From: Magnetococcales bacterium
Lineage (GTDB): Bacteria > Pseudomonadota > Magnetococcia > Magnetococcales > JADFWU01
Assembly (NCBI GenBank): GCA_015234045.1
Contig: JADFWU010000016.1
Coordinates: forward strand, 239-64,238
Length of the DNA: 64,000 bases
Direction of reading: 5' to 3'
This document shows, piece by piece, positions 6,477 to 64,000 of this stretch (position 1 is its first letter; every line of letters starts with the position of its first letter). Both the position numbers and the translations under genes were made by a program. The notes beneath the pieces are model-generated. The model saw only the letters and a program-made list of their open reading frames with translations, searched no databases and was not told the DNA's origin.

Positions 6477-6878
6477 GCGATTCGATCCTGTCAAACAGCC
6501 AGCATGGCACCCTAAAACTGTCAATAACCAAACTTAATGATGGCGTTATTTGGGGCCTGAGATAACAGCCTCATCACCTTCCCGGTGGGCATTGCGGCGG
6601 CAACTGTTATGATGGGCATTCCGGCACATATTTTATCACTACATTGATTTCAAACGCATTAAATTGTTTAATAAGGCGTTGACTATTGCGGATGTAGTGA
6701 TGAGTCTACTGCTCGTTATGGCAGATAATTAATGACCGGACCACATTTTGCATGCTTCCTCATTGTTGGAACGACATCACTTTCCTTATGCTAAAGTGGC
6801 TTGGGACAGGGTGATATTGTCGCTCTATCTGGCACTTATATAGTGGGATCACCCCATCAACTAGGAATCGTCGTTATC

Positions 6879-29700: not shown

Positions 29701-30011
29701 TCATCAAGAATCTCAATCCAACCACCACTGCCCGGCCCAAGCCCAACCACCAACTCATCCGCCCCATCACCATCAACATCACACCAAGCAGGCCGTGTAT
29801 CACCGTCATGCTGGTGATTATCGTCCCCACTCACCCGAACACGCCCTTCTGAACTGGCCGGATCAAAAGGATCAAGCAACGCCACGGCACCCGCACCGCC
29901 CACACCATGACTCATGGCCATCGCACCAGGCAGCCCTGCATTGGCATTGAAAGAAAAGAGGCAAAAAAGGAAAGCGCCGAGAATAGAACCAAGCATGGTG
30001 TGACGAATCAT
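26796..30011 (-). CDS. Secreted protein with FG-GAP-like repeats and a C-terminal Beta_propel-type domain
   Basis: Signal peptide; repeats PAxxDxDGDGxDELVxG; STNLQEVGVDEADRIKSDG, GE.LYSVRY, DPLYVFDLADP, GYSDYLHP. Confidence 0.88.
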   Translation of the reverse strand: MIRHTMLGSILGAFLFCLFSFNANAGLPGAMAMSHGVGGAGAVALLDPFDPASSEGRVRVSGDDNHQHDGDTRPAWCDVDGDGADELVVGLGPGSGGWIEILDDESHSHAHLRWLRIPWKKYNDANGETMPACGDLDDDGLDELVIGLGDGSRGWFLLLDDALHGYKKIAGTSHTNGWKRYSGKKYNRSGGGVRPAVGNLDQDSADEIVIASGPGGKGWVEVFDDAQASFAHLDWKRPGHLKYQRNDEGIWPAICDLDGDGASELLLGMGQGGGGWLRVFDSADALHTKSATGLRRGWLRLGWRGYNQRSGAVMPACANMDDDPSDELVLSLSARDGAGWYEVRDDLTTGMEHKAWNRITLPVTTATDTQQKPGMIHLAMRPQGQSGPGFALAQVASGEALKDFLTQGLLDSATPQMYDRLYMATAMEADASSDAGSGATVSSTNLQEVGVDEADRIKSDGHYLYLISDQSITDNSVESDVAVSSFVAPFHYTKKHLRVLRVRDDPASVTEVDEIAFESDEQVDGLYLANNRPEDAADMLVTVGGRNSNMWAMWLSPWYWRSGDTEIGFYDVSDPTAIERNTHIKINGQLISSRRIGEKLYLVTRYTPSPRDFNYYPVTDSEKQDNQTLTEQITVSDLLPDISINGIDHGDLVEPENCFVPSFSEKRAITPDLITLVTIDLAQPDQWLAHCVVGPTETIYVSTESLYLATTRVNYAAPRIRPIGRFDALMEPVEMVETTAIHKFSLTEEGPLYRGSGTVRGTLGWEQDKKPFRMSEYDNTLRIATSLGQTWNDTATTRLTLLQEKTSDLSTVLPSLEETAHVDGIGALGERLYSVRYVGSRAYLVTFKVTDPLYVFDLADPFNPVQRGALHIEGYSDYLHPIGETLLLGIGKTAVADTDASDMGGRGAWYQGLKLTLFDVADPDNPSELESHVIGQRGTDSGILSDHHAMAWLPPMDGKPGRLAIPVKRHDTEPTHAWADLGQPWTWYDWTDTGLHLFDIYSDGASSLQERIDPIGQITISSRDNGDTDGGYWYFAQDRALLLNDSVHYIHGGQVWSGIWGDNKEGIVGPQ

Positions 30012-43181: not shown

Positions 43182-43964
43182 GTGCATGACTTTATTTCGG
43201 TAACTGAAATGGCAGGCGATCATGTCAGTACAGAACAGGTTGATCGCCTTTATCAACGCTATGGTTGGGCTATGCCCTATTGTCGTGATCGGGATGTGCT
43301 TGAAGTCGCTTGTGGTACTGGTGCGGGACTTGGTTTCCTCAAGTCACACGCACGCTCGCTGATCGGCGCTGATCTATGTGACAACGTGCTCTCAACACCT
43401 CGACTTCATTACGGAGACCGTATTGATATCCGAACGTTTGACGCACAAGACATCCCACTGCCCGCCAGTAGTCTGGATGTCGTCATCCTATTTGAAGCAC
43501 TCTACTACCTACCTGAACCATTACGCTTTTTTCAATCCTGCCAACGGGTATTGCGTCCTGGCGGTCATCTCTTGATTGCAACTGCCAACAAAGATCTGTC
43601 TGATTTCAATCCCAGTCCGTTAAGCACAACATATTTTGGCTCAGTAGAGTTGGCCCAAACGCTCAACCAACACGGTTTTGAGGTGTCGCTGTATGGCAAT
43701 ACGCCCTATGAAAATACGGGCCTGCGACAACGCACGCTCCGCCCTTTGAAACAGGCTGCCGTATCGCTGGGCCTACTCCCTAAATCCAAGGCGGGCAAGA
43801 TGCTATTGAAGCGGTTTGTTTTTGGCAAGCCGACACATTTTCCTTGGGAAATCAAACAATCATCGATTCAACACGCAGCACCTGAGCCAATTTCAAACAC
43901 TGAGCCTGACCAATCCTTCAAAGTGATCTTTTGCGAGGCAACGTTGAAACATGCCACACAGTAA
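43182..43964 (+). CDS. Class I SAM-dependent methyltransferase
   Basis: VLEVACGTGAG, DAQDIP, RVLRPGG. Confidence 0.88.
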   Translation: MHDFISVTEMAGDHVSTEQVDRLYQRYGWAMPYCRDRDVLEVACGTGAGLGFLKSHARSLIGADLCDNVLSTPRLHYGDRIDIRTFDAQDIPLPASSLDVVILFEALYYLPEPLRFFQSCQRVLRPGGHLLIATANKDLSDFNPSPLSTTYFGSVELAQTLNQHGFEVSLYGNTPYENTGLRQRTLRPLKQAAVSLGLLPKSKAGKMLLKRFVFGKPTHFPWEIKQSSIQHAAPEPISNTEPDQSFKVIFCEATLKHATQ

Positions 43965-43978
43965 GCGTTGACACAGCC

Positions 43979-45091
43979 ATGCACTCTGTTCCCTTTTTCG
44001 ATTATCAGGCACTGTTTCGACAGCATGGTAACGCAATGATGGCCATCATTGCGGATTGTGCCGAGCGTGGCGCATTAATCATGCAGCAGGAACTGCTCGA
44101 TTTTGAAACAAAGCTGGCCAAATTCATAGGCGTAGACCATGCCATCGGCGTTGGAAACTGCACGGATGGGCTCTATCTGGCATTAAGTCAATCCGGCATC
44201 GGTGCTGGCGATGAAGTCATTTTTCCGGCTCATACATTTGTTGCCACCGCCGGTGCCATTAAACAGGCCAATGCCATACCCGTTCCCGTAGAGTGTGGTA
44301 CGGACCATTTGATTGATCCCAACGCAATAGAGCAAGCCATCACCCGCAATACACGCGCACTATTGCCGGTCCAACTCAACGGGCGTGTGGCACAAATGGA
44401 CCACATTCTCGCTATTGCCAAGCAGCATGATCTATTGGTGATTGAAGATGCAGCCCAAGCGCTGGGCGCGACGTTTCAGGGTAAAAAAGCGGGCAGTTTC
44501 GGTCTTGCCAGTGCATTCAGCTTCTATCCTGCCAAACTCGTTGGCGGATTGGGCGATGGCGGTGCTGTGGTGACCAATGATGCGGTATTGGCGAACAAAA
44601 TCCGCGCCGCCCGAGATCATGGACGAGATCCAGAGCAGGGTACTATCCAATTTTGGGGGATGAACAGCCGATTGGACACGATCCAAGCGGCGGTACTCTC
44701 CTATCTGTTGGATCATTTTGATGAGGTGATCATCAAACGCCGTCACCTGGCCAATCTCTACAATGAACAGTTACACGATCTTGATGATCTGACTCTACCA
44801 CCAGCGCCGTCTGATCAGGGGGCCAACTGGGATGTATTTCAAAATTACGAGATTGAAACCAGTCACAGAGATCAATTGAAAGCGTATTTGAACCAACAGG
44901 GGATCGGCACCGCGCTTCCTTGGGGCGGTCAAGCGGTTCATCAATGGGCCAATCTTGGCTTTTCCTGTGCACTTCCGGTCACTGAACGCATCTTGTCACG
45001 GTCGTTGATGTTGCCGTTGAACATGGCGATAAAGGATGCCGATGTGCGCTCTGTCTGTCAGACCATTCGAGGCTTTTATGAACAGGTCTGA
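43979..45091 (+). CDS. DegT/DnrJ/EryC1/StrS sugar aminotransferase
   Basis: GDEVI.PAHTFVAT, IEDAAQALGA, SFYPAK..GGLGDGG, NSRLDTIQAA. Confidence 0.93.
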   Translation: MHSVPFFDYQALFRQHGNAMMAIIADCAERGALIMQQELLDFETKLAKFIGVDHAIGVGNCTDGLYLALSQSGIGAGDEVIFPAHTFVATAGAIKQANAIPVPVECGTDHLIDPNAIEQAITRNTRALLPVQLNGRVAQMDHILAIAKQHDLLVIEDAAQALGATFQGKKAGSFGLASAFSFYPAKLVGGLGDGGAVVTNDAVLANKIRAARDHGRDPEQGTIQFWGMNSRLDTIQAAVLSYLLDHFDEVIIKRRHLANLYNEQLHDLDDLTLPPAPSDQGANWDVFQNYEIETSHRDQLKAYLNQQGIGTALPWGGQAVHQWANLGFSCALPVTERILSRSLMLPLNMAIKDADVRSVCQTIRGFYEQV

Positions 45092-45932
45092 AGCGTGCCA
45101 TAAAGCCTGGCAAAACGACACGCCAATGCTTGCAAAACATATCCGTAAACATGCTTTAATGATGACCAATCGAGGCAATACCGCCCATATCGGCTCTATT
45201 CTTTCCATGACAGATATCATTGCCGTGCTTTATGGCGCGGTGATGCGTTTTGATGCGGCCAAACCGGATTGGATCGGACGAGATCGCTTTATTCTCAGTA
45301 AAGGTCATGCAGCCGCTGGTGTTTATGCGGCTTTGGCAGAGTGTGGGTTCTTCTCTACAGATATCTTAAAAAGTCATTGCCAATCCAATTCACCTCTGTG
45401 TGGCCATCTCACTCATAAGCCCCTTCCGGGGATTGAGCACTCTACCGGCTCTTTGGGCCACGGCTTATCTGTGGCATGTGGTCGGGCATACAGCTTGAAA
45501 AAATCCGGTTCGGACAGTCGCGTTTTCGTTGTAATGGGCGATGGCGAATGCGATGAGGGTGCCATATGGGAAGCGGCACTGTTTGCCGCACACCATCAGT
45601 TGGATAACCTGGTAGTGATCATTGATCGCAATCACTTACAAAGCATGACCACCACGGAGAATACCGTAAAGTTGGAGCCATTCGCTGATAAATGGCGGGC
45701 ATTTGGCTGGGCTGTGGATCAACTGGATGGTCATGATCATACCGCTCTGAATACACGCTTGACCACCCTGCCCTTTCGTTCGAATCAACCCAACTGCCTG
45801 ATTGCCAATACGGTAAAAGGGTGTGGTGTTGGCTTTATGGAAAACCAGGTACTTTGGCACTATCGGTCACCGCAAGGCAGTGAATTCATTGCAGCCTGTC
45901 ACGCACTTGAGCATGGAGACAATAGTGCGTAA
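45078..45932 (+). CDS. Transketolase-like N-terminal (TPP-binding) subunit
   Basis: HIGS.LS, RDRFILSKGH, STGSLGHG, GDGECDEG.IWEA. Confidence 0.92.
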   Translation: MNRSEACHKAWQNDTPMLAKHIRKHALMMTNRGNTAHIGSILSMTDIIAVLYGAVMRFDAAKPDWIGRDRFILSKGHAAAGVYAALAECGFFSTDILKSHCQSNSPLCGHLTHKPLPGIEHSTGSLGHGLSVACGRAYSLKKSGSDSRVFVVMGDGECDEGAIWEAALFAAHHQLDNLVVIIDRNHLQSMTTTENTVKLEPFADKWRAFGWAVDQLDGHDHTALNTRLTTLPFRSNQPNCLIANTVKGCGVGFMENQVLWHYRSPQGSEFIAACHALEHGDNSA

Positions 45933-46866
45933 TGCGTTTATTGAAACACTCATCACCCTGGCTGAGAAAAATCCTCGCCTGATGTTGATAACCGCTGATT
46001 TGGGATTTCGGATTTTTGATGATTTCATAGAGCGCTTCCCAGAACAGTTTCTCAATGTGGGTGTAGCGGAACAAAATATGATCGGTGTGGGCACCGGTCT
46101 GGCTCAGGAAGGATGGACTGTATTTGCCTATTCCATTGGCAACTTTTCCACACTGCGCTGCCTGGAACAGATTCGCAATGATGCTGCCTACCATAATGTC
46201 AATCTGACCGTTGTGGCATCCGGTGGCGGGATGGCTTATGGCACGTTGGGCATGTCACACCACGCCACCGAAGATTTGGCTATCTTGCGTGCTTTGCCTG
46301 GCATCACCGTGACTGCGCCCTGTGACGTATTGGAAACAGTGCAACTGACACAGGCGTTAGCAGATCGACCGGGTGTCGGCTATCTGCGTCTTGAGCGCAG
46401 CAGTAGTCTGAAGTCTGATCAACCTGTGCATTTAGGTCAACCACGGCGATTACGCGAAGGAAACGACCTGACGTTGATGGCCACTGGCGGCATTGTTTCC
46501 GAAGTAATGGCCGCCGCAGAGATGATGGTCAACCATGGAATCGAAGCCCGTGTATTGAGCATTCACACGGTGAAACCACTCAACCCTTCTGAAATCCATG
46601 CAGCCATCATTGAAACGGGCGGCATTGTCACAGTTGAAGAGCATACTGTAATGGGCGGGTTGGGCAGTACGGTGATGGAATGCTTTGTTGAACAGGGTAT
46701 GACACCGGGCTTTTTCATGCGTCTGGGATTACCGGATCGTGCGGTGGACCAAGTGGGCGATCAAGCCTGGTTGCGTACGCATTATGGATTGGATGCAGTG
46801 GCCATTGTCCAGCGTACACGCCAACTGTTTGCGACAAAAAAAACGCAACACTGTGGTATCCAATGA
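45925..46866 (+). CDS. Transketolase-like C-terminal subunit
   Basis: TADLG, NVGVAEQNMIG, CLEQIRND, SHHATED, TVEEH...GGLGS. Confidence 0.92.
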   Translation: MRNAFIETLITLAEKNPRLMLITADLGFRIFDDFIERFPEQFLNVGVAEQNMIGVGTGLAQEGWTVFAYSIGNFSTLRCLEQIRNDAAYHNVNLTVVASGGGMAYGTLGMSHHATEDLAILRALPGITVTAPCDVLETVQLTQALADRPGVGYLRLERSSSLKSDQPVHLGQPRRLREGNDLTLMATGGIVSEVMAAAEMMVNHGIEARVLSIHTVKPLNPSEIHAAIIETGGIVTVEEHTVMGGLGSTVMECFVEQGMTPGFFMRLGLPDRAVDQVGDQAWLRTHYGLDAVAIVQRTRQLFATKKTQHCGIQ

Positions 46867-47600
46867 AACGTCTGATGGACATCCTGTTGGCACTGATCGG
46901 GCTTTTACTCTCAGCCCCTGTTGTGCTGGTTTTCATGCTGCTTGTCTGGCGACAAGATGGTCATAGCCCATTTTATCGCGGAGAGCGCATTGGGTTACAG
47001 GGTCGTGTGTTTCGCATGACCAAACTACGCACCATGATACACAACGCCCATCAAAGTGGTGTCGATTCCACATCCACATCGGACAGACGCATCACGCCGG
47101 TTGGTGAACGGATTCGCCGTTTCAAACTGGATGAGCTAACCCAGCTTTGGCATGTATTGATTGGTGAGATGTCTCTGGTGGGGCCGCGTCCGAATGTTGC
47201 TGCGGATGTCGCACTGTATACCAACCGCGAACGGGACCTGCTTTCGGTATTACCGGGTATCACGGATCTGGCCTCTATCGTATTTGCCGATGAGGGCGAC
47301 ATCCTACGCCACAGCCAAGACCCGGACCTGGATTACAATCGCCTGATCCGACCTTGGAAAAGCCGCCTGGGCCTACTCTATGTTCAAAATCGCTCGACAT
47401 GGCTGGATATACAGATTATCTGGTTGACGATCCGTGCGCTGATCAATCGCCCTTCCGCTTTGAATCGTCTGGCACGCTGTGTGAGGCGGCTGGGCGGTTC
47501 AGAATCGCTCTGCCAGGTGGTGTGCCGGGTTGATCCACTCACACCACATCCACCACCGGGCAGTGACGTGATTGTCACGTCACGCAGGATCAATGACTGA
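46863..47600 (+). CDS. Bacterial sugar (phosphoglycosyl) transferase
   Basis: KRLMDI, KLRTM, DRRITPVG..IRR.KLDEL.QL..VL.GEMSLVGPRP, PGITD.AS. Confidence 0.93.
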   Translation: MKRLMDILLALIGLLLSAPVVLVFMLLVWRQDGHSPFYRGERIGLQGRVFRMTKLRTMIHNAHQSGVDSTSTSDRRITPVGERIRRFKLDELTQLWHVLIGEMSLVGPRPNVAADVALYTNRERDLLSVLPGITDLASIVFADEGDILRHSQDPDLDYNRLIRPWKSRLGLLYVQNRSTWLDIQIIWLTIRALINRPSALNRLARCVRRLGGSESLCQVVCRVDPLTPHPPPGSDVIVTSRRIND

Positions 47601-48790
47601 TGCCTGAGTCAAACAGATCCACACATCATAAAGGCATCAACCTCCATATCTATCCCTCCCGGTTTGCCCATCGGACACGGATATTGAAGCAAATGCGAGC
47701 AATCTGGGATTGGCACTGTTTTGATGAGATCCATGTGGTCGCGATCCATGATGGTGTACTGCCACAAGAAGAACAGATTGGACCAGATCAGAGGGTTTTT
47801 CGGCTTACTATTCCCGCCATATTACAGTCAGGTGGTCGATTGCGTCGGGTACTGGCACATCTATTTTGGATGGTTAAGATCCATCGGACCTATGCCAAAC
47901 AGACCATACGCTGTATCAACTGCCATAATCTGGGCACGCTTGGATTGGGTGTCTGGTTCAAAATACGCTACGGTTCACTACTGATCTACGATGCCCATGA
48001 GTTGGAGACTCAGCGCAATGGTTGGCCGACATGGCTCTGTTGGGCTACGGGCGTGATTGAGCGCCTGCTCATTCGATGGGTGGATCAGCTGATTGTGGTA
48101 GGTCCAGCCATTGCAGCATGGTATCAGAATCACTATGGACTGCCGGACAATCGGGTTCATGTGGTCCGCAATGTGCCACAAAAACAGCCGATTATTAGTG
48201 AGTCCATCGACTTGAAACGGCGGATGGGTATTCCTGCGCATCACATACTGTGCATCTATGTCGGATTGCTGGATAGCGGACGCAATATCACCATGATGTT
48301 GGAAAGCTTTTCACGCTGTCATCGGTCAGATATTCACCTGTTGATGCTGGGTTACGGTCCATTGAGCAATACCTGTCAAAGCATGGCACACGCACATGAC
48401 ACGATCCATTATCATCCAGCTGTTGCACCAGATCAGGTGGTCAATTATATCACCGCTGCGGATGTCGGGTTGGTCCTGATTGAACAGAGCTGTTTGAGTT
48501 ACTACTACTGCCTGCCCAACAAACTGTTTGAGTGCCTGATGGCCGGCGTTCCTGTGTTAACAAGCGACTTCCCAGAGATGAGTCAGATTGTTCACACCCA
48601 TGCGTGCGGCTGGTGCATTCCACCCGCTGATGAAGCGCTTGTTAATTTTTTACAAGAGCTTCACATATCCGCCATCGAACAGAAACATCACGGTGCCAAA
48701 CAGGCCGCTTCTCTACTGGATTGGCATCATGAAGCCAACACGATGAAACAAGCTTATCAAGAAATTATCGACAATACACAAAAATACTAA
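47600..48790 (+). CDS. GT4-family glycosyltransferase
   Basis: IYDAHELE, YVG.L..GR, ADVG, LPNKLFE.LMAGVPV..SDFP. Confidence 0.9.
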   Translation: MPESNRSTHHKGINLHIYPSRFAHRTRILKQMRAIWDWHCFDEIHVVAIHDGVLPQEEQIGPDQRVFRLTIPAILQSGGRLRRVLAHLFWMVKIHRTYAKQTIRCINCHNLGTLGLGVWFKIRYGSLLIYDAHELETQRNGWPTWLCWATGVIERLLIRWVDQLIVVGPAIAAWYQNHYGLPDNRVHVVRNVPQKQPIISESIDLKRRMGIPAHHILCIYVGLLDSGRNITMMLESFSRCHRSDIHLLMLGYGPLSNTCQSMAHAHDTIHYHPAVAPDQVVNYITAADVGLVLIEQSCLSYYYCLPNKLFECLMAGVPVLTSDFPEMSQIVHTHACGWCIPPADEALVNFLQELHISAIEQKHHGAKQAASLLDWHHEANTMKQAYQEIIDNTQKY

Positions 48791-54478: not shown

Positions 54479-54852
54479 GAAAAGTCCATCAAGTGGCTAA
54501 ACATTCTAAAAGGTTTCAACACGCTTTAAATCAACCACATTGCCCGGTTAGAAGCAAGCATCTCATTCACTGATACGGGGTATTGATATAGTGTCGTAAA
54601 CCACTCAGACATACAGCATTAACTTAATAATTATTTATTGACAATTATTAGCTGTATTTTTAACTGAAACATGTTAATTACATTAAGCTATCACAAAAAA
54701 TATACAATTTAACTTGATATGATATTCATTGCTGCTATTATAGATATGAGTTGTTTTAGAATCATTGATAAAAATTAAGATCTTTCGAGATTAATGTTGT
54801 GATTTTGTCACAATTAAGACGTTTTATAACCTAACATTCTGAGAGGTGGGTT

Positions 54853-55374
54853 ATGGGAGAACCATATATCGGCGAGGTTCGCATTGTCGGCTTTGACTAT
54901 GCACCAGTTGGCTGGGCCAAATGTGATGGTCAGACGTTATCAATAAACCAAAATCAAACACTGTTTGCACAACTCGGTGTAACATATGGTGGCAATGGGA
55001 TAACCGATTTCAAATTGCCAGATTTGCGTGGGCGCGTACCCATTCATTTTGGCGATAGTTTCGGCGGGGTCTATTTGCGAGGCCAACTCGGTGGCGTACC
55101 ATCGACCAATTTACACGAAGAACAGATGGCCACCCATAGTCATTACATCAGAGGATGCCCAGACACAGCTGACACAGCTTTACCGGATCAGGCACTGTTC
55201 GCAAGCACTGACGACAAAAATGTCTATGAAAATATTGACACAGGTTCTTTGGTTCAGCTTCCAGCAGACACGGTAAATTCAACTGGTCAAGGTGCAGGAC
55301 ATCCGAACACGCAACCGACCCTGGTTTTGAACTTCATCATTGCTCTGCGTGGTCTTTGGCCACCACGGGATTAG
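54853..55374 (+). CDS. Phage tail-collar domain protein 1 (microcystin-dependent protein-like)
   Basis: PYIGEVR...FDYAPVGWAKCDGQ...LG.TYGG.G...F.LPDLRGR...H.H...QP.LVLNFIIAL.G.WP. Confidence 0.92.
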   Translation: MGEPYIGEVRIVGFDYAPVGWAKCDGQTLSINQNQTLFAQLGVTYGGNGITDFKLPDLRGRVPIHFGDSFGGVYLRGQLGGVPSTNLHEEQMATHSHYIRGCPDTADTALPDQALFASTDDKNVYENIDTGSLVQLPADTVNSTGQGAGHPNTQPTLVLNFIIALRGLWPPRD

Positions 55375-55387
55375 CAGGAGATAAAAA

Positions 55388-55918
55388 ATGGATCCATTTA
55401 TTGGTGAAATCAGAATGTTTACTGGCAATTTTGCACCAAGATTGTGGGCATTTTGCGATGGACAATATGTGACACCTCAGCAACACAGTTCACTTTTTGC
55501 TCTTATTGGTGCCACTTATGGTGGAGATGGGTACACAAAGAGTGCACTACCTGACCTACGTGGACGCCTCCCTGCACACTACGGCCAAGGCCCAGGTACA
55601 GACTACTACATTCAAGGCATGACTCCTGGTTACGAGAGAATTCCCCTTTCAATCAGTCAATTGCCTAGCCATCGCCACTCAGTCTCTGCCTCTGGAGATC
55701 CTGCAAACGAATCAGCAATTACAGCAAACTCAAATGAGTCTGTTGCTCTAACAGATAGTCGGACGCTGATCTATACAGAAGACAAATCGTCCATGAAAAC
55801 CATGGACAGCGACACAGTGCAGGTAACCGGGAACTCATTACCACATAACAACATGATGCCATACACTGTTGTTAATTTTATTATTGCCCTTGAAGGTGAG
55901 TGGCCGAGCAGAACTTGA
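55388..55918 (+). CDS. Phage tail-collar domain protein 2
   Basis: MDPFIGEIRMFTGNFAP..WAFCDGQ...LPDLRGR...LPSHRH...HNNMMPY..VNFIIALEG. Confidence 0.92.
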   Translation: MDPFIGEIRMFTGNFAPRLWAFCDGQYVTPQQHSSLFALIGATYGGDGYTKSALPDLRGRLPAHYGQGPGTDYYIQGMTPGYERIPLSISQLPSHRHSVSASGDPANESAITANSNESVALTDSRTLIYTEDKSSMKTMDSDTVQVTGNSLPHNNMMPYTVVNFIIALEGEWPSRT

Positions 55919-55933
55919 TAAAGGAGACGTAAA

Positions 55934-56488
55934 ATGGCAGACCCATTTATCGGTCAAATCACTATCATGGCAGGCAGCTATGCACCCAAAGGCCATGCTT
56001 TCTGTGATGGTCAGATACTTAGTATTCAGCAAAACCCCGAACTCTACAGTATTATTGGTATAGGTTATGGCGGTGATGGCCGCTCCACTTTTGGAGTACC
56101 TGACATGAGGGGCCGTGCACCACTAGGTGCAGGCTTTGGGACTGGACTGACTCCACACCCATTTAATGGAAATAAATATGGCGGTGAACCCCTCCATACG
56201 CTTTCAGTGGAAGAAATTCCGTCCCACACCCATACAATCAACACATCTCAAGCTAAAGCTGACTTAAACACACCATCTGCTGACACGTATGTTGGCAGAC
56301 CTCAAGCAATGAAACGCAGAACGTTTTCTGACTTTTTTATGTACAGTCAGGATTTCATTCAAGAAGTTCAAATGAGCAACGCAGCCATGGGCGCAGCAGG
56401 CGCAAGTCAGCCACATGAAAACAGGCAGCCCTTTTCTGTGTTGTCATTTGTCATTGCATTGGCAGGAACCTATCCCCAACACAGTTAA
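55934..56488 (+). CDS. Phage tail-collar domain protein 3
   Basis: MADPFIGQI...YAP.G.AFCDGQ...YGGDGRSTFG.PDMRGR...IPSHTH...HENRQPF..L.F.IAL.G.YP. Confidence 0.92.
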   Translation: MADPFIGQITIMAGSYAPKGHAFCDGQILSIQQNPELYSIIGIGYGGDGRSTFGVPDMRGRAPLGAGFGTGLTPHPFNGNKYGGEPLHTLSVEEIPSHTHTINTSQAKADLNTPSADTYVGRPQAMKRRTFSDFFMYSQDFIQEVQMSNAAMGAAGASQPHENRQPFSVLSFVIALAGTYPQHS

Positions 56489-56517
56489 TCCAAAACAGGG
56501 ACCTCGGAAAAGTCTGA

Positions 56518-57051
56518 ATGACCATGTGCGTAGAAAACATAAAAATAGTACTGCGCCCTTTGGAAGAGGAAAAGGACTTGCTCTTCCTTCAGTATCTTTA
56601 CGATACCACACGCCATTGGGAAATGGTCCAGATCCAGCAGGCAGAAAACTGGACAACTGGAGAGATCATTGCTTTTTTGATCAACCAGTTTACGCTTCAA
56701 CATCGGCAGTATATGGACAATTACCCCAAGGCCGAACACCACATAATAGAGTGTAACAGCCTCCCGATTGGGAGGCTTTATGTGGAAACTCAAAAGCATG
56801 AGATCAGAATCATTGATATCGCTCTGGTGCCAGAATATCAACAACAAGGTATCGGAGGGAGACTGATTCAAAGGGCGCTAAAACGAGGCGAAAATCTGGG
56901 GTTGCCGGTTTCCATTCATGTGGAAAACAATAATCCGGCTATGACACTGTATCAGCGTCTTGGTTTCAAAAAAATTGACGAAGTCGGCATCTATCATCTG
57001 ATGCGTTGGCATCCTGATGACAGAGAGTCAGATTCATTTGATGCGGCCTAG
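56518..57051 (+). CDS. GNAT N-acetyltransferase
   Basis: QF..QH..Y...YP.A, GRLYV, IIDIALVPEYQQQGIGG.L, IHVE.NNPA..LY.RLGF. Confidence 0.9.
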   Translation: MTMCVENIKIVLRPLEEEKDLLFLQYLYDTTRHWEMVQIQQAENWTTGEIIAFLINQFTLQHRQYMDNYPKAEHHIIECNSLPIGRLYVETQKHEIRIIDIALVPEYQQQGIGGRLIQRALKRGENLGLPVSIHVENNNPAMTLYQRLGFKKIDEVGIYHLMRWHPDDRESDSFDAA

Positions 57052-57080
57052 AGCATATTATAAAATTAGACAATGAATCA

Positions 57081-57198
57081 CAACCTGAGTGGAAGCCCTG
57101 GTGATGTTTTTGCGCCGCTTTTGATATGCGAAGCAGATCATCAGAGCAAAAACATCACCAGGGCTAGAACACTGTTCAAATTTTAGACAAAAACACTA
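57081..57198. repeat. Family B repeat with a perfect 20-bp stem, between convergent genes
   Basis: AGCCCTGGTGATGTTTTTGC (57094-57113) pairs with GCAAAAACATCACCAGGGCT (57146-57165); homologous to 36174-36296. Confidence 0.8.
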
Positions 57199-57258
57199 TG
57201 ACATCGGTGGACAGCAAAGGATGATGTAACAACTTCACCCTTTGCTGTCCATTTAGCA

Positions 57259-57654
57259 TCAACTAAAAATAGCCTGGAAATTGACACCTTCAACATAATT
57301 GTCGTCACTTTGGGCCAAGCTTTTCTGTTGTTCGACCGATTTTTCGACTGTTGCGGGCAACACAGGCACCATAAGGATCTGCATTGTGCCAATTTTGTCA
57401 TTGGACACGTCATAGCATCCCTGCTGTACCGGTGCCTTTCCTTTGGTTTCAAACATCAGGGAAAAGGGCAGACGACCGACAACACGCAAACGCTCTTTAT
57501 CAGACTCTTTGGAGGTCATTTTGGCTTCAATCAGTTCAGCCTCAATAACTTTTTCATCAATGGTAATGTTAAACATTTCGCCCACTAAAGGCTCAAATGT
57601 CGCACACCTTAACTGTTGAAGATCTGGCGATTTTAGAGTGGATTCTTCAGCCAT
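57259..57654 (-). CDS. DUF6916-like small protein
   Basis: F.PLVGE.F, L.E, R.PFSL.F, QG.Y, G...I.MVPV, C-terminal FQAIFS. Confidence 0.7.
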   Translation of the reverse strand: MAEESTLKSPDLQQLRCATFEPLVGEMFNITIDEKVIEAELIEAKMTSKESDKERLRVVGRLPFSLMFETKGKAPVQQGCYDVSNDKIGTMQILMVPVLPATVEKSVEQQKSLAQSDDNYVEGVNFQAIFS

Positions 57655-58100
57655 GGACTTTGCCTCACGAAACATTAAGTTAGATTACTTTAATGAAAGA
57701 ATGCATCACACATAATTAATTGTCAACCCAATATTTTACAATTACAGCGATATTATATTAAAATTAAACAGCTATAGGATTATTTGTTGTCCTTTTTTTA
57801 CCAGCATACAATCATTGCCTGACATATAGTGGTTCATCTATTCTCTGGATGCAGAATCATAATATGCGACACCATAATATCACTAATTATCTCATCCACT
57901 TCTTATTCTTGAAATATTGATTAAAATTATATATTATTGAGTATAGTTTGAAAGTTTAAACTTTATTGATAAGTTATTACTGTATCTTCATAAAGAAAAG
58001 CATCCTCAACCGTCTCTCAAAAATTGAGTTTAGATCGGGGTTCTGTGCCCCTGGAAGAGCCCCTAAGCTATTAACCTCACAACAAACCAAGACTATATCT

Positions 58101-58994
58101 ATGAGTCATAAAATTCACTTCATCTCTGGTCTTCCTCGTTCTGGCTCAACGTTGCTTGGCGCAATTCTTCGTCAGAATCCGCGATTCCAGGCAGGAATGA
58201 GCAGTCCTGTTTTTAATTTGTGTAGCGGATTAATCGCCATGATGAGTGCTGGTGGTGAGATGAACTTGATGATTCAAGACTCTCAAAAGCCAAACCTGGT
58301 CAGGAATCTCTTTACCAGCTACTACTCTGACCCTATTTTCCCAAAAAATATTGAAGTGATATTTGACACCAACAGAGGCTGGTGCGGGAAGCTACACACA
58401 GCCCTCGACCTCTTCCCCAATGCCAAAGTGATCTGTACGGTTCGTAACTTGGCTTGGATAATGGATAGCTTGGAACGCGTATTTCGAAAAAACCCCTACG
58501 AAAACACGAGACTGTTCGGGCCGACCCCCCATACAGGCAGTGTCTATGGCCGAGTTAATACTCTCTCTCAACCAAACAGCTTGGTTGGAAGCGCCTATCT
58601 TGCTCTACGTGAAGCGTTCTATAGCGAAAATTCCCAGGCCCTGTTGGTTGTGGATTATGAACTGCTCACGCGCCGTCCACACGAAGTCATGCCTTTGATT
58701 TATGAATTTATAGATGAACCCTGGTTTGAACACGATTTTGACAACGTTGAGTATGACGCACCTGATTTCGACCAGGCAGTTGGCGCACGTGGGCTGCATC
58801 ATGTGGCTAGAAAAGTCGAGTTCAAACCGCGCAAAAGTCTTCTGCCACCAGATCTATTTCAGCAATACAGTGATCAGGCTTTCTGGACTGACTTACGCGG
58901 CAGCGCAGCTAAAGTGATCGCACCTGAACAAAAAACCAAAAAAAATGAGATGACGGACATCTCACCCATGCTCCCAAAAGCAGGCGTTTTTTAA
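58101..58994 (+). CDS. Sulfotransferase-family protein
   Basis: HFISGLPRSGSTLLGAILRQNP (5'-PSB motif), FDTNRGW, KVICTVR...IMDS.E, HDFDNVEYD..FD....GLH. Start ATG 58101. Confidence 0.88.
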   Translation: MSHKIHFISGLPRSGSTLLGAILRQNPRFQAGMSSPVFNLCSGLIAMMSAGGEMNLMIQDSQKPNLVRNLFTSYYSDPIFPKNIEVIFDTNRGWCGKLHTALDLFPNAKVICTVRNLAWIMDSLERVFRKNPYENTRLFGPTPHTGSVYGRVNTLSQPNSLVGSAYLALREAFYSENSQALLVVDYELLTRRPHEVMPLIYEFIDEPWFEHDFDNVEYDAPDFDQAVGARGLHHVARKVEFKPRKSLLPPDLFQQYSDQAFWTDLRGSAAKVIAPEQKTKKNEMTDISPMLPKAGVF

Positions 58995-59030
58995 TCCCCC
59001 CTTCATGATTTGCTTGTTAGGAAAACAGCC

Positions 59031-62000
59031 ATGTCTCGTTTTTGTTCAATACTGGATTTTGTAAATCATAAGAAAAACATCTCTGGTCTTCAAAAACAGA
59101 AATCCACAATTTCTGCATTCAATCATGCCCCAGCCCCAGTCAACACAAATCATGCTTTCACTCTTGAACCACGCATTCTGTTTGATGCAGCTGGCGCTCT
59201 GACCATGATCAGTGAGGGTGAGATTAATGAAACCGACATGGACAACTGCGCTTGTGACAACGCCTTACCCATAACCCCGGACAATGGCAGTGATACTGCG
59301 GCAGAACTACTGAACTCGGCACTGCTAACACTTTCTGGAACAGAGAGTTCTACTGACGCGTTAGATTCCGAAGAACATATAGCCGACACGCCTCTCTCTT
59401 TGAACGCGAGACGAGAGATTGTTTTTATTGATCAAGCTATCGAAAATTATGGTGATTTACTCACCGGCGTATCATCCTCTGCTGAAATCGTGCTGATTGA
59501 CGGCGATGGAATCCATCAAATTACCGAATATTTAAAGAGTCAACAGGGGATTGACGCTATTCATATTCTTTCCCATGGTGGTATGGGATTTATTGAGCTA
59601 GGTGATGACCACCTCTCACTGGAAACATTAAATCAGGACCAATCAGCCATCCAGTCCTGGGGAAATGCACTCACTGAAAATGGAGATATTTTGCTCTATG
59701 GATGTAATGTAAGTGGAAATAGTGAGGGACAAGATTTTATTAGACAACTCTCTGAACTAACCGGTGCTGATGTTGCTGCCTCTGATGATATTACTGGACA
59801 TGCAACACTAAGCGGTAACTGGAATCTCGAATCTCAGACAGGTATTATTGAACCAAACTTTTCTATCACTGATAATATGAGCGATTCTTTTCTTCAGTCG
59901 CTTGCTGTTGTCAGTGGCACAGAGCTTTTGGAAGATATGGGGGCGGACACCACTGACGGAATCAACACTTCTGGATGGTCAACAAACAATACTTATTACT
60001 ACCTTACCGGCACTACTCATGATGCAACGGCCGTTGCCTATGTAGAAGTGGACACAAACTATATTAGCAAGTTTGATATTACTGAAATATATTTTGCTTG
60101 TACCGGGGATCAACCACTAGATGCTGGCGGATTTGTTTTAACTGGTTATAAAACTGATTCAACAACCGTAAGCTGGACTTCCAGTTATGAAACATATTCC
60201 CAGTTTTCCGCGAGCATTGTCTGGACTAATCTGACAAAGATTAAATTTTTTGCAGACTCCTCAAAAAATCAAGAAGCTAGCGCTTCTCCCTCTTGGATGG
60301 GCGTTGGTTCCATCACTTTTGGAACGGTAACAGAAGGAGGTGGCGACACCACGTCACCAACGGTTACCAGCGTTTCAGCCACCACAGCTGACGGCACATA
60401 TGGAATCAGTGACACCATTGACATAACAGTCACTTTCGATGAATCCGTCACCGTCACCGGCACGCCACAAATCACCCTGGAAACCGGCACTTCTGATGCC
60501 GTTGTGGACTACAGCAGCGGATCAGGCAGTGCAACACTGACTTTTCAATATACAATCAGTGCCGGTGAAAGCAGTTCGGATCTTGCCTACTTGAGCACCA
60601 GCGCTCTGGACCTTAATGGCGGCACCATTGCCGATTCCTCTGCCAATACCGCAACATTGACCTTGTCTACACCCGGTGCAGCCAACTCTTTGAGCAATAG
60701 CAAAGCCCTAGTGGTAGATGGCGTTGCACCAACGGTTTCCAGTGTTTCAGCCACCACAGCCGATGGCACATATGGAATCAGCGACACCATTGATATAACA
60801 GTCACCTTTGATGAATCCGTCACCGTCACCGGCACGCCACAAATCACCCTGGAAACCGGCACTTCTGATGCGATTGTTGACTACAGCAGCGGCTCTGGTA
60901 GCGCCACATTAACTTTCCAATATACCGTTAGCGCAGGCGAAACCAGCTCTGATCTGGACTACATAAGCACCAGTGCTCTGGCACTCAACAGCGGCACCAT
61001 CCTTGATTCCGCAGGCAATGCAGCCACGCTGACTCTGGCCTCTCCTGGCGCAGCCAACTCCCTTGGCAATAATAAAGCCCTGGCCTTGGATACAACAGCG
61101 CCTACGGTTACCGATGGTAATGTCTCCATCAGCGGCAGCAGTGGCACCTCTGGTGCGTACATAGTTGGTGATACAATCACCGCCACTTGGGACAACACCG
61201 GCTCCGGTGATAACAACAGCGACATCAATACCGTTACCGTTGATTTTAGCAGTTTCGGCGGCGGTGCAGCAGTATCAGCGACTAACAGTTCAGAAACCTG
61301 GACAGCCACCTATACCCTTGTCTCTGGTTCCATTGATGGTACCAGTCTGAACGTCAGTGTCACTGCCACTGATGATGCCAGCAACGCCACCACCACATCG
61401 GACAGCACCAATGCCACTGTTGACAACCAGGTAGCCACCGTTACCGATGGCAACCTCTCCATCACCAGCAGTGGCAGCGGCACGTCTGGAGCCTATATCA
61501 TCGGCGACACGATCACCGCCCAATGGGATAACACCGGCAGCGGCGACAACAATGGTGACATCTCTACAGTTACCATGGATTTCAGCAGTTTTGGCGGCGG
61601 TTCAGCGGTCTCTGCCACCAACAGTTCAGACACCTGGTCAGCATCATACACCGTTGTTTCAGGCTCCATTGACAGCAGCAGCCTGAATGTCTCAGCATCC
61701 GCCTCTGATGACGCTGGCAATAGCGCTACAACCACGAGTGACACATCCAATCTCACTTTGGATAATCAAGTACCCGTTGTCACAGATGGCAACATCTCTA
61801 TCACCAGTTCCGGCAGTGGCACCAGCGGCGCGTATATCGTTGGAGATACCGTCACCGTCCAGTGGGATAACACCGGCAGTGGCGACAATAACGGTGATAT
61901 TGCCTCCGTTACCGTGGATTTCTCCGCCTTTGGCGGCGGTGCTTCCGTCTCCGCAACCAACAGTTCAGACACATGGACCGCCTCTTACACCATCGTCTCC

Positions 62001-64000
62001 GGCACCATTGACAGCAGTAGTCTGAATGCCTCCGTCTCGGCCACAGATGACGCTGCCAACACCGCCACCACCACCGCTGATAGCAGTAATTTAACCCTGG
62101 ATAATCAAGAACCCTCAGTCAACTCGGTGAGCGTGCCCAGCGATGGCACATATGTTGCCGATGACACCCTGGATTTTACCGTAAACTTTGACGAAGCAGT
62201 CACGGTTGATACAGGTAGCGGCACGCCAACCATCAGCTTTGATCTTGGCGGCTCTACAAAATCAGCCGCCTATCTCAGCGGTTCCACTACCACGGCATTG
62301 GTATTCCGCTACACCGTAATCAGTGACGATATTGACTTGGATGGTATTACTGCACCCACAGCGATCACGTTGAATTCCGGCACCATTCAGGACGACAAAG
62401 GCAATGATGCCAGCACCAGCCTGACCAGCGTGGGCAGTACCACCAACGTCCTGGTGGACGCAGTCGCGCCAACATTCAACAGCGCTGGTTCCACGCCCAA
62501 TGATGGTGATTCAGGGGTCGCCATTGCCGATGATATTATCGTTGATTTCAGCGAAGACATCGCCGCTGGCACTGGAAACATCACCCTCTATAACGTGACC
62601 GACAGCACCACTACCGAAACCTATGACATCTCCGGCGCAGGCTCCGGCACATCACCCACAGCGGGCACCATCTCGATAAGTAGCGATAAACTCTATATTG
62701 ATCCCACCAGCACTCTGAGTGCCGGCAAGCAGTACAGCATCCAAGTAGCCACCACCGCCATCGAGGATACCGCAGGCAACAGCTTTGCCGGAATTACCGA
62801 CACCACCACCTTAAATTTCTATACCATCCCACTGGTCACCCTCTCTGCATCACCGACAAGCACCAGTGAGAACGGCGGCACGTCCACCATCACCGCCACC
62901 TTGAACCAAACATCCAGCAGCACTGTCACCATCAATCTATCCACAAGCGGCACAGCCACAGACAGCGGCACCGATTATTCGCTCTCATCCAACAGCATCA
63001 CCATCACCGCAGGCAACACCACCGGCACCACCACCCTGACCGGCGTTGATGATGCTGCCTCCGAGGGCGATGAAACCGCTATCATTGATATCAATACGGT
63101 GACCAATGGTGCAGAAAGCGGCACCCAATCCGTCACCATCACCCTGACCGATGATGACAATACAGCCCCTGAAGTTGATCTGGATACCAGCAGTGGCGGT
63201 GTGGATTATTCAGTCACCTTCACCGAAGGCGGCGGCAACATCGATATCGCCAACAGCAGTAATTTGGACGTCACTGACGCGGATACCGACACCATCGCCA
63301 CCGTCATCATCTCCCTGACCAATGATCAGGATGGTGCCAGCGAATATCTGACCTCCACAGTCAACAATGGTAATGTCACTGTGTCCAATAACGACAGTGA
63401 TACCATCACCCTCACTGATGCCGGAAGCGCCTCCTATGCCGACTTTGAAGCGGTATTGGATGGTATTCAGTATGTCAACAGCACCACCACACCGGACACC
63501 ACGACCCGCACAGTAACCGTGGTCGCCAACGATGGTACCACCGATGGCAGTGCAGCTACCGCATCAATTACCGTGGATGCCCTGCCCGTAGTCAGTTCCG
63601 TGTCCGTACCCTCTGACGCAACCTACAAATCTGGTGACACACTTGATTTTACTGTAACATTCAGCGAATCCGTCATCGTTGACACCAGCAGCGGCACACC
63701 CTATTTTGAACTCACAGTTGGTTCGTCCACCGTCAATGCCAGCTATAATGGCAGCGATGACGACAACAGCACCACACATGCCTTCCGCTATACCGTCACA
63801 TCCACCGACCTGGATAGCGATGGCATCGCCGTAGGCAGTGCCATTAACGTTAATAGCGGCACCATCCAGGATGCCAACAGCAACAGCCTGACCACCACAT
63901 TGAACAGCGTAGCCAGCACCACCAGTGTTCTTGTAGACGGTGTAGCACCAACAATAAGCGACATTACATCATCGAAAACCGATGGCAGCTATAAAGCTGG
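59031..64000 (+). CDS. Giant LEPRxLL / DUF4347 repetitive surface protein, 3'-incomplete (over 1650 aa in window), missing from the ORF track
   Basis: ATG 59031 after AGGA; spot-checked in one frame at the start, within the repeats and at the window end. [17 protein letters not shown]...IHILSHG...DILLYGC...[11 protein letters not shown].TG...GNW.LE; then Thr/Ser/Asp-rich Ig-like tandem repeats and a Calx-beta-like unit. Confidence 0.92.
   Translation, partial: [1656 protein letters not shown]
60350..62100 (+). repeat. Intragenic tandem repeats of the giant adhesin
   Basis: Two ~370-bp near-identical units (PTV.[40 protein letters not shown]) followed by three ~335-bp units (VTDGN.[24 protein letters not shown]). 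Boundaries approximate. Confidence 0.85.

Follow-up and report, generated by a model that had tools for sequence, protein, structure and literature searches.

Three classes of phage-type collar proteins in a conserved bacterial gene cassette with a GNAT acetyltransferase and DUF6916, and its enrichment beside genes of giant surface proteins

Introduction

What do three tandem genes for phage-type tail-collar proteins do in a bacterial genome, at a place where no phage structural genes are found? The question is raised by a stretch of 64,000 nucleotides (nt) of a Magnetococcales bacterium (assembly GCA_015234045.1; contig JADFWU010000016.1, positions 239 to 64,238, or G000:C25:239-64238 in our numbering), which is referred to below as the window, and at positions 54853-57675 of which three collar paralogues are encoded together with an acetyltransferase of the GNAT family and a small protein of family DUF6916. 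These genes are followed by those of a sulfotransferase and of a giant repeat protein. Thousands of collar proteins that are not part of a phage carry the annotation 'tail fiber protein', and they are frequently taken for debris of prophages. A first-pass annotation of the window proposed that the three collars form a heterotrimeric tip or cap that associates, or is exported together, with the giant protein, and that both the GNAT and the sulfotransferase modify it.

Here we report that a conserved, non-phage cellular cassette, of which window 54853-57675 holds one copy, is widespread in bacteria. The sequences of its collars place them in three distinct paralogue classes, and the cassette is strongly enriched beside genes of giant surface proteins. 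The reading that we favour, with a confidence slightly better than even, is that of a knob built from the three collar classes that acts with the neighbouring giant.

Results

A conserved five-gene cassette

The three collar genes are arranged in tandem on the forward strand, at 54853..55374 (173 amino acids (aa); Pfam PF07484, E 3.7e-26, 91.3 bits), 55388..55918 (176 aa; E 3e-24, 85.2 bits) and 55934..56488 (184 aa; E 2.3e-24, 85.5 bits), with gaps of 13 and 15 nt. Their products, assigned below to classes 1, 2 and 3, respectively, all exceed the gathering score of 24 bits of Pfam Collar and match profile positions 1-57. The GNAT gene (56518..57051, forward strand; 177 aa; Acetyltransf_1, E 8.5e-12) lies 29 nt past collar 3 and is convergent with the gene of the DUF6916 protein, a predicted small beta-barrel (57259..57675, reverse strand; 138 aa; PF21880, E 4.6e-15). 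The upstream flank of the cassette holds a malic enzyme gene and argJ (Pfam), and an AT-rich spacer of 374 nt precedes collar 1. In the host genome (3.65 Mb in 117 contigs, 47.6% GC) there are no collars other than these three, one DUF6916 gene, and at least five DUF4347 genes, the latter being the family to which the giant protein of the window belongs. Pfam analysis of the 45 open reading frames (ORFs) of the window, i.e., the 11 of the cassette region scan and the 34 remaining ones, returned no capsid, terminase, sheath, tube or baseplate family; the 34 encode metabolic, regulatory, transposase and other repeat-protein families. The first-pass annotation had described three signal-less tandem collar paralogues with an HxH and a C-terminal motif, a GNAT, a convergent small protein, a sulfotransferase and a repeat protein of more than 1650 aa in a window devoid of phage structural genes. 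All of these genes were located where it had named them, and the frame of the giant extends to at least 2082 aa.

Relatives of the window collar were collected with one genome per species, which yielded at least 592 confirmed relatives; the loci surveyed are the best 80 of these at least 592, that is, the nearest relatives of one collar, in which all stop-to-stop frames were translated and searched with the window proteins and with iterated profiles. The 80 loci cover 12 named phyla (35 Pseudomonadota, 21 Acidobacteriota, 7 Chloroflexota, and others). Three collar frames were found in 73 of them, six in five, seven in one, and two in one that is cut by a contig end. A GNAT homologous to that of the window was present in 72 of the 80 loci, and DUF6916 in 64 after iteration, compared with 26 by single-sequence search. 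Fifty loci extend for at least 3.5 kb to either side of the cassette; of these, 46 contained GNAT, 43 contained DUF6916, and 42 contained both. The commonest order, encountered in 13 loci, is that of the window: three collars, GNAT and a convergent DUF6916 gene. Overall, the 65 neighbouring GNAT-DUF6916 pairs comprised 35 convergent, 29 co-directional and 1 divergent. All-vs-all clustering of the 80 loci revealed no conserved phage, transporter or lysis family and, apart from the giants described below, no further family in more than 9 loci. Since the arrangement recurs in some form in all 80 related loci, it is far from a chance one. The co-occurrence that the first-pass annotation had assumed thus stands for the collars, GNAT and DUF6916 (73, 72 and 64 of 80), and so does its view that the triplet is not phage-borne; it does not stand for the sulfotransferase (1 of 80), and DUF4347 proved to be one giant type of many. 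The GNAT and DUF6916 are part of the collar cassette irrespective of giant type, and this holds as well for loci without a neighbouring giant, so that their grouping with the collars was borne out and a tie to the giant was not.

A reciprocal survey gave a similar picture: of a sample of 301 genomes of the phylum to which the window belongs, 35 had DUF6916, and 30 DUF6916-centred loci contained a collar in 25 cases, a GNAT in 21, and either of the two within 1.5 kb in 28. A profile of 53 DUF6916 proteins matched 10173 cluster representatives at E <=0.001 and 6606 at E <=1e-10. Within the order of the window, collars have a patchy distribution (16 of 41 genomes) and occur mostly in three or six copies; the window collars are at most 45% identical to these same-order relatives and, among the matches listed, 49% identical to collars of Acidobacteria. 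Copies annotated by PGAP are located on a megaplasmid of Ruegeria sp. TM1040, a plasmid of Rhizobium bangladeshense and a plasmid of Paenibacillus sp. 37, the collars being named 'tail fiber protein'. The rhizobial copy is a canonical giant-triplet-GNAT-DUF6916 cassette and is not rhi; in the Paenibacillus copy the incomplete annotation table shows no small neighbouring gene.

Two variants were observed as well. Mainly in Alphaproteobacteria, an extra gene of about 410 aa without a Pfam family is inserted between collar 3 and the GNAT (L029, L032, L038, L044, L057, L061, L071, L073 and L078, and Ruegeria NC_008043 294016-295233). Five genomes of the same order as the window (G008, G014, G023, G027 and G032) have a single longer collar gene, with frames of 247-322 aa, and no triplet; in G014, G023 and G027 a DUF6916 gene is found at most about 1 kb away from it.

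Three collar classes

Collars 2 and 3 of the window are 40% and 38% identical to collar 1, and all three share the HxH motif, a later HxN motif and a C-terminal (I/V)IALxGxxP strand. Collar 1 has its Collar domain at residues 7-63 and its HxH histidines at residues 95 and 97, and ends with the conserved strand. Across the survey, the tandem collar runs comprised 83 of three genes, 1 of two and 1 of six. Gene-position labels placed on a FastTree tree of 246 proteins changed 20 times, versus a mean of 116 after shuffling. Class profiles that were seeded by gene position and reassigned once assigned one collar to each class in 79 of 82 complete triplets, with the order 1-2-3 in 73; as the count of 79 is partly circular it was repeated with 10-fold hold-out, by which 80 of the 82 triplets contained one of each class, at a median margin of 37 bits. 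Moreover, a maximum-likelihood tree (IQ-TREE) was determined for 25 triplets, namely that of the window and 24 random ones drawn from those already classed 1-2-3, and therefore bears on the coherence of the classes and not on their count. Classes 1 and 2 were recovered as clades, with support of 99.7 and 98 in the Shimodaira-Hasegawa approximate likelihood ratio test (SH-aLRT), the two label changes are the minimum, and a class 3 clade was not rejected by the approximately unbiased (AU) test (p-AU 0.85). Window collar 1 falls inside the class-1 clade (SH-aLRT 99), with a held-out class margin of 27.5 bits, and window collar 2 inside the class-2 clade (SH-aLRT 98).

The HxH motif, G145, the HxN motif, P155 and the C-terminal strand show 100% conservation in each of the three classes, HxH thus being present in 246 of 246 sequences. 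Class-specific residues are located in the N-terminal strand (positions 7 and 12-14) and in the C-terminal strand (158-166), and residues 98-144 in collar 1 numbering are hypervariable. The N-terminus M-S-E-P-F is conserved in all classes, the window copies being less typical. As judged from these sequences, the collars are three distinct, old paralogue classes, as a heterotrimer would predict. Because one gene per class is kept, the triplet is duplicated as a whole and the class-specific residues lie in the terminal strands, a 1:1:1 heterotrimer is the best reading, and we consider it likely that the collars assemble in this predicted form.

Likeness to phage fibre tips

T4 gp12 is an intertwined homotrimer, in which zinc on the threefold axis is bound via an HxH pair of each chain. 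Its tip is the closest solved relative of the collars by sequence (1ocy; E 5.3e-6 over residues 6-85, with a profile of the three collars); the alignment ends at residue 85, ahead of the HxH motif of the collars. Solved sequence relatives were phage fibres only, and PHROG tail-fibre families match the collars over their full length. The collars begin directly at the collar domain (residues 6-7) and have neither a shaft nor a signal peptide. We class the cassette as a receptor-binding module of phage type that has been domesticated. A monomer model of collar 1, made from 61 aligned sequences, is too poor to place the HxH motif (predicted local distance difference test (pLDDT) 56.7, predicted template modelling score (pTM) 0.27), which fits what an obligate intertwined oligomer might give and proves nothing.

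GNAT, DUF6916 and export

The GNAT scores 45.8 bits against Acetyltransf_1 (cut-off 20.7) and also matches Acetyltransf_7 and Acetyltransf_10. Its nearest solved relatives are N-terminal acetyltransferases (NATs), including 6wqb (E 3.8e-8), archaeal NATs and RimI; its best NCBIfam match is rimI, at 43.7 bits and below the cut-off of 86.4, so that this is only the nearest named family. These relatives, in combination with the conserved free N-termini of the collars, suggest N-terminal acetylation. That the GNAT would acetylate the collar knob in this way is speculation, which we hold tentatively and at clearly less than even probability.

The DUF6916 protein of the window scores 55.9 bits (gathering score 27), and its AlphaFold2 (AF2) model is a small beta-barrel with a pLDDT of 83.7. 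PHROG contains no family that it matches, NCBIfam has no model for either the collars or DUF6916, and a search of the Atlas returned DUF6916 clusters only. A PilZ-like barrel (MrkH, YcgR-N) was considered for this fold and dropped, the best VIA-align Z of 7.5 being below the noise of about 8. Many loci contain a second, longer DUF6916 paralogue (about 125-160 aa), and in 12 of the 64 loci with DUF6916 (L010, L013, L018, L046, L048, L049, L050, L058, L063, L064, L068 and L075) this longer paralogue carries a twin-arginine translocation (Tat) signal, consisting of RRxFL, a hydrophobic stretch and AxA. Pfam TAT_signal was found on 3 of these 12 paralogues, below threshold, and NCBIfam TIGR01409 exceeded its cut-off in one and nearly reached it in two. 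Furthermore, TAT_signal occurs on 11% of the members of an Atlas cluster of 239 DUF6916 proteins, and the phylum sample added two Tat-type examples. The short DUF6916 form of about 100 aa and the window copy are without the signal, and no RR motif was found in the window proteins or in the DUF6916 relatives of the same order. The presence of Tat-exported DUF6916 beside signal-less collars suggests hitchhiking export of the putative knob; where DUF6916 has an RR signal, the knob would therefore reach the compartment of a Sec-exported giant via Tat hitchhiking.

Giant neighbours

Clustering identified a family of very large frames in 40 of the 80 loci. When stop-to-stop frames, and not gene calls, were counted, 40 of 80 loci had a frame of 1000 aa or more no further than 500 nt from the cassette. 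Among the 50 well-flanked loci there were 31 (62%), versus 4.6% of random 2.8-kb sites in a control taken from one genome, that of the window, with sites inside such frames excluded. The cassette is thereby tied, by strongly enriched genomic context, to giant surface proteins, and the proximity of collars and giant to which the first-pass annotation had drawn attention recurs (31 of 50 loci), its DUF4347 type of giant being one of many. Pfam analysis of 23 cassette-adjacent giant-sized frames detected Big_9, cadherin-like, He_PIG, DUF11, Calx-beta, GEVED and beta-helix domains, Big_1 with invasin D3, DUF7933 with HYDIN-type immunoglobulin (Ig) domains, and one outer-membrane barrel; two frames were without a family, one (L081) is a fusion of phosphodiesterase, tetratricopeptide repeats (TPR) and sulfotransferase, and one (L015) is a sensor kinase.

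In 26 loci the giant ends just before collar 1 on the same strand, with a gap of about 0-260 nt where measured, and such giants have clear Sec signal peptides; a common N-terminal domain, in which a TGC motif is conserved, was found in 13 of them. No Pfam family was found for their N- or C-terminal ends (examples are L028:3535-9915, L042:3409-9912 and L012:4690-9867), and a hidden Markov model of the C-terminal region retrieved 4 close relatives only. The region that follows Big_9 in these canonical giants is not found in the window giant, and in the host genome it is the Big_9 part alone that matches other giants. A cysteine is located 2-7 residues from the C-terminus, often as CPxP, in 23 of the 26 giants, a count made without a control. 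At two loci only, a second large protein is encoded downstream of the cassette (L028:12651-17585 and L062:12678-17447); that of L028 ends in a gingipain-like Peptidase_C25 domain, and the C-terminus of that of L062 is near-identical. From its domain, the L028 protein could process the neighbouring giant.

The giant of the window is encoded on the forward strand from 59010 (TTG) or 59031 (ATG) to 64000 and onwards past both window and contig, without a stop up to the contig end 1255 nt past the window. It comprises DUF4347 (residues 137-294, 174.7 bits), Big_5 and Calx-beta domains (Pfam) and tandem Ig-like repeats, and has a LEPRILFDA motif at its N-terminus and no obvious Sec signal; this LEPR-type N-terminus is consistent with a protein that may leave the cell directly from the cytoplasm. 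Tandem repeats of about 333 nt, about 85% identical, make up the contig tail within the giant gene (window 63756-64000 onward) and account for the assembly break. A paralogous DUF4347 giant on contig C83 has repeats about 74% identical to these. An alignment of the DUF4347 domain of the window giant (59419-59892) with nine homologues shows the conserved pattern sHG ... yGC ... AS.D.TG, which recalls a His/Cys dyad, the histidine being substituted in 1 of the 10 sequences. In 4 of 11 same-order loci (G036, G022, G038 and G004) a DUF4347 giant is encoded no more than 1.5 kb from the cassette, and according to Pfam such giants also lie beside the cassette in Oceanospirillum maris (L022) and Pseudaeromonas sharmana (L079), so that they recur in the order of the window, in O. 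maris and in Pseudaeromonas; a phmmer search of the 80 loci with the DUF4347 segment gave 0 matches and had missed the latter two loci. For Azospirillum, DUF4347 proteins with VCBS and RTX repeats have been proposed in silico as biofilm proteins (PMC13723633).

Sulfotransferase and other genes of the window

The sulfotransferase gene (57966..58994, forward strand; start TTG 57966, or more likely ATG 58101) encodes a protein matching Sulfotransfer_3 (E 1.6e-15; 58.4 bits, cut-off 27) and Sulfotransfer_1 (37.1 bits, cut-off 22), without another homologue in the host genome. Its nearest solved relative is protein-tyrosine sulfotransferase 1 (TPST1; E 2.5e-4), over the N-terminal nucleotide-binding part only. 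The first-pass annotation had included this enzyme in the collar system, which does not agree with its absence from 79 of the 80 cassettes. It was found by homology in one locus, to which the fused TPR-sulfotransferase domain of L081 may be added. It is 72% identical to the product of a G004 gene that immediately precedes a DUF4347 giant, and a homologue adjoins the DUF4347 giant of O. maris. By context, the enzyme belongs to the DUF4347 giant, and not to the cassette.

In the spacer upstream of collar 1 there is a candidate sigma-70-like promoter (54714..54741, forward strand; 10 of 12 consensus positions and a TG extension). It is a weak lead, since 12 promoter-like sites were found in the scan versus 10.1 expected, and neither the promoter nor the terminator scan exceeded shuffled expectation. 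Elsewhere the window encodes a second, unrelated sulfotransferase fused to TPR repeats (6801-8300; Sulfotransfer_3, E 4.3e-45), a giant of 2258 aa with RCC1 repeats, He_PIG, PKD and a C-terminal cyclophilin-type isomerase (19754-26530, reverse strand), an adjoining beta-propeller protein of 1071 aa (26796-30011, reverse strand), and a sugar-modification cluster (43182-48790) with a methyltransferase, a DegT-type aminotransferase, a split transketolase, an initiating sugar transferase and a GT4 glycosyltransferase. A DDE transposase (203-1516; DDE_Tnp_1_4, E 2.3e-158) is located at the contig start.

Discussion

The following mechanism could connect these observations. Each collar would correspond to the receptor-binding tip of a T4 gp12-type fibre, i.e., the collar and its HxH head, without the shaft. 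The three collars would assemble 1:1:1 in the cytoplasm into one intertwined knob that a metal, coordinated by the six histidines from three HxH motifs, would hold together, and the hypervariable stretch (residues 98-144 of collar 1) would provide an asymmetric ligand-binding face. DUF6916 may act as escort or assembly partner of the knob, and in some lineages its Tat-signal paralogue would let the folded, signal-less knob leave the cytoplasm by Tat hitchhiking. The GNAT probably acetylates a cassette protein, perhaps at the conserved free collar N-termini, and the sulfotransferase would serve the DUF4347 giant. We infer that the knob works with the neighbouring giant secreted repeat protein, here the DUF4347 giant, as its binding tip, cap or docking partner. 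A bolder version, which appears doubtful to us, is that at least 12 phyla have domesticated a phage fibre tip as an obligate, metal-clamped heterotrimeric knob that is acetylated, leaves the cytoplasm folded with DUF6916 as its escort (via Tat where the escort has a twin-arginine signal), and is mounted on or recognised by a giant Ig-repeat surface protein. On that equally doubtful view, the genes would specify a modular 'cellular tail fibre', the shaft of which is monomeric and the asymmetric tip of which is encoded separately, and this would represent a new class of adhesion or recognition organelle.

Several observations weigh against the heterotrimeric knob and its partnership with the giant. 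Two of the class assignments in the window itself are less firm than that of collar 1: the held-out margin of collar 2 over class 3 is 0.2 bits, the weakest of the three, and collar 3, with a margin of 9.5 bits, is on a very long branch (1.9). Phage collar fibres are homotrimers, and each paralogue keeps the full HxH motif, so that three homotrimers could form as well. Single long collars paired with DUF6916 exist, and more distant collar genes may differ. The fold of DUF6916 had no match in the PDB by Foldseek, and none in BFVD, both at E <=0.001. The collars, the GNAT and the DUF6916 protein of the window are without signal peptide and most of the neighbouring giants are Sec-exported, which leaves unexplained where they would meet if a Tat signal is absent, as in the window and its order. 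As to the giants, the 31 of 50 loci are counts of stop-to-stop frames set against a control from one genome; the counted frame of L015 is a hybrid sensor kinase, those of L040 and L049 are unverified minus-strand frames, and 30 of 50 remain without L049. In 19 of the 50 well-flanked loci there is no adjacent giant, and the giants share no single family and vary in orientation.

How these points are to be read depends on the alternatives. The collars could form three separate homotrimeric knobs of different specificity, as a repertoire of binders after the manner of phage fibres. The solved collar fibres, all of phages, are homotrimers, each paralogue has retained HxH and all core motifs, and the hypervariable stretch differs between paralogues; yet a repertoire should vary in copy number and class, and what is found is one of each old class in 80 of 82 triplets, the order 1-2-3 in 73, duplication of the triplet as a unit, and residues typical of each class that lie in both terminal strands (7, 12-14 and 158-166) and not only in the variable stretch, which makes such a repertoire unlikely in our judgement. 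We assign a similarly low probability to the idea that the cassette has a function of its own, cytoplasmic or secreted, and merely shares variable islands with giant adhesin genes. It would account for the 19 well-flanked loci without a giant, for giants of many unrelated architectures that lie upstream, downstream or divergently, for the lack of signal peptides on the collars, the GNAT and most DUF6916 proteins, and for at least 4 other DUF4347 genes in the host genome that have no cassette. It fits less well with a giant adjacency of 62% versus 4.6% at random sites, with the 26 loci in which a giant ends directly 5' of collar 1 on the same strand (gap about 0-260 nt where measured), and with the recurrence of the association across phyla, also on annotated replicons of Alphaproteobacteria and Bacillota.

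Acetyltransferase immunity is known for some peptide-nucleotide antibiotics, and a phage receptor-binding fold that adjoins an acetyltransferase could accordingly be taken for a secreted bacteriocin-like or lectin-like toxin with its immunity enzyme. The patchy, accessory-gene-like distribution (16 of 41 genomes of the order) would suit such a role, as would the positive selection that has been reported for Solibacter collar paralogues (PMC3174227). The 173-184 aa of the collars are filled by collar and head, leaving no toxic domain, PADLOC assigned 0 families to six proteins, and no lysis or export gene is conserved (giants aside, every further family is confined to at most 9 of the 80 loci); this makes a toxin improbable. 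Still far less probable is a remnant of a prophage, tailocin or other contractile system. That the collars match phage tail-fibre families and are named 'tail fiber protein' by the NCBI pipeline would be its basis, and it conflicts with the absence of phage structural families from the 45 window ORFs and of any recurring phage family from the 80 loci, with flanks of malic enzyme gene and argJ, with collars that lack a shaft, and with a host genome that has no other collar gene. The heterotrimeric knob acting with a neighbouring giant is thus the interpretation that we retain.

The significance of the locus lies in a fixed five-gene cassette with three subunit classes, which is present in many phyla and is found beside giants far above chance. 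If the proposed heterotrimer and its link to the giants are borne out, the trimeric receptor-binding tips of phages would gain their first asymmetric relative, and giant adhesins a new accessory system; moreover, the cassette would provide a function for DUF6916 and possibly for the rhi/COG4675 puzzle, and would correct prophage predictions in which such genes count as phage signal. Culturable carriers are Ruegeria sp. TM1040, Rhizobium bangladeshense BLR175 and Paenibacillus sp. 37. In the literature, as far as its text was accessible, no description of the cassette or of DUF6916 was found, and omics supplements may hold such rows; COG4675 ('microcystin-dependent protein') was met in omics lists only.

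Among the known systems compared, i.e., gp12, rhiABC/COG4675, fibre-chaperone pairs, Tat hitchhikers and the accessory sets of adhesins, none combines three collar classes with a GNAT and DUF6916. RTX- and Bap-type giant adhesins resemble the window giant, which is an Ig-like repeat protein with DUF4347, whereas their accessory sets consist of a transporter, a protease and a cyclic di-GMP receptor, as in LapA with LapG and LapD, and not of collars; for the window giant, its C-terminus and any transporter genes are situated past the end of the contig. Tat hitchhiker complexes, such as hydrogenase subunits, are comparable in that signal-less, presumably metal-bound oligomeric passengers would stand beside a small Tat-signal protein in 12 of 64 loci; in contrast, most cassettes, including that of the window, have no Tat signal on DUF6916. 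The rhiABC operon of Rhizobium leguminosarum, which is cellular, non-phage and of unknown function, offers another collar domain in such a setting, since RhiB contains Pfam Collar (PMC13133039). According to the same source, the neighbours of rhi are rhiI and rhiR, which are quorum-sensing genes, and RhiA and RhiC are without a Pfam domain (PMC13133039), while in our case no autoinducer synthase, LuxI or LuxR family was found among the 45 window ORFs.

The closest parallels come from phages. Phage fibre genes with their assembly chaperones (Tfa or gp38 type) and tailocin fibres likewise place the gene of a receptor-binding trimer beside a small accessory gene, and DUF6916 accompanies collars even where only one collar is present. 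Unlike these chaperones, DUF6916 has no PHROG match and no viral or solved fold above noise, and Tat signals, for which a phage chaperone has no use, are present on some of its paralogues. With the T4 gp12 tip (PDB 1ocy, 1pdi and 5iv5), the collars share a homologous collar domain, which in the collars is followed by HxH. They differ from it in being free-standing proteins of 173-184 aa without shaft, baseplate or phage. Finally, whereas gp12 is a homotrimer, the collars belong to three fixed paralogue classes, whose genes share one operon in the company of a GNAT and DUF6916.

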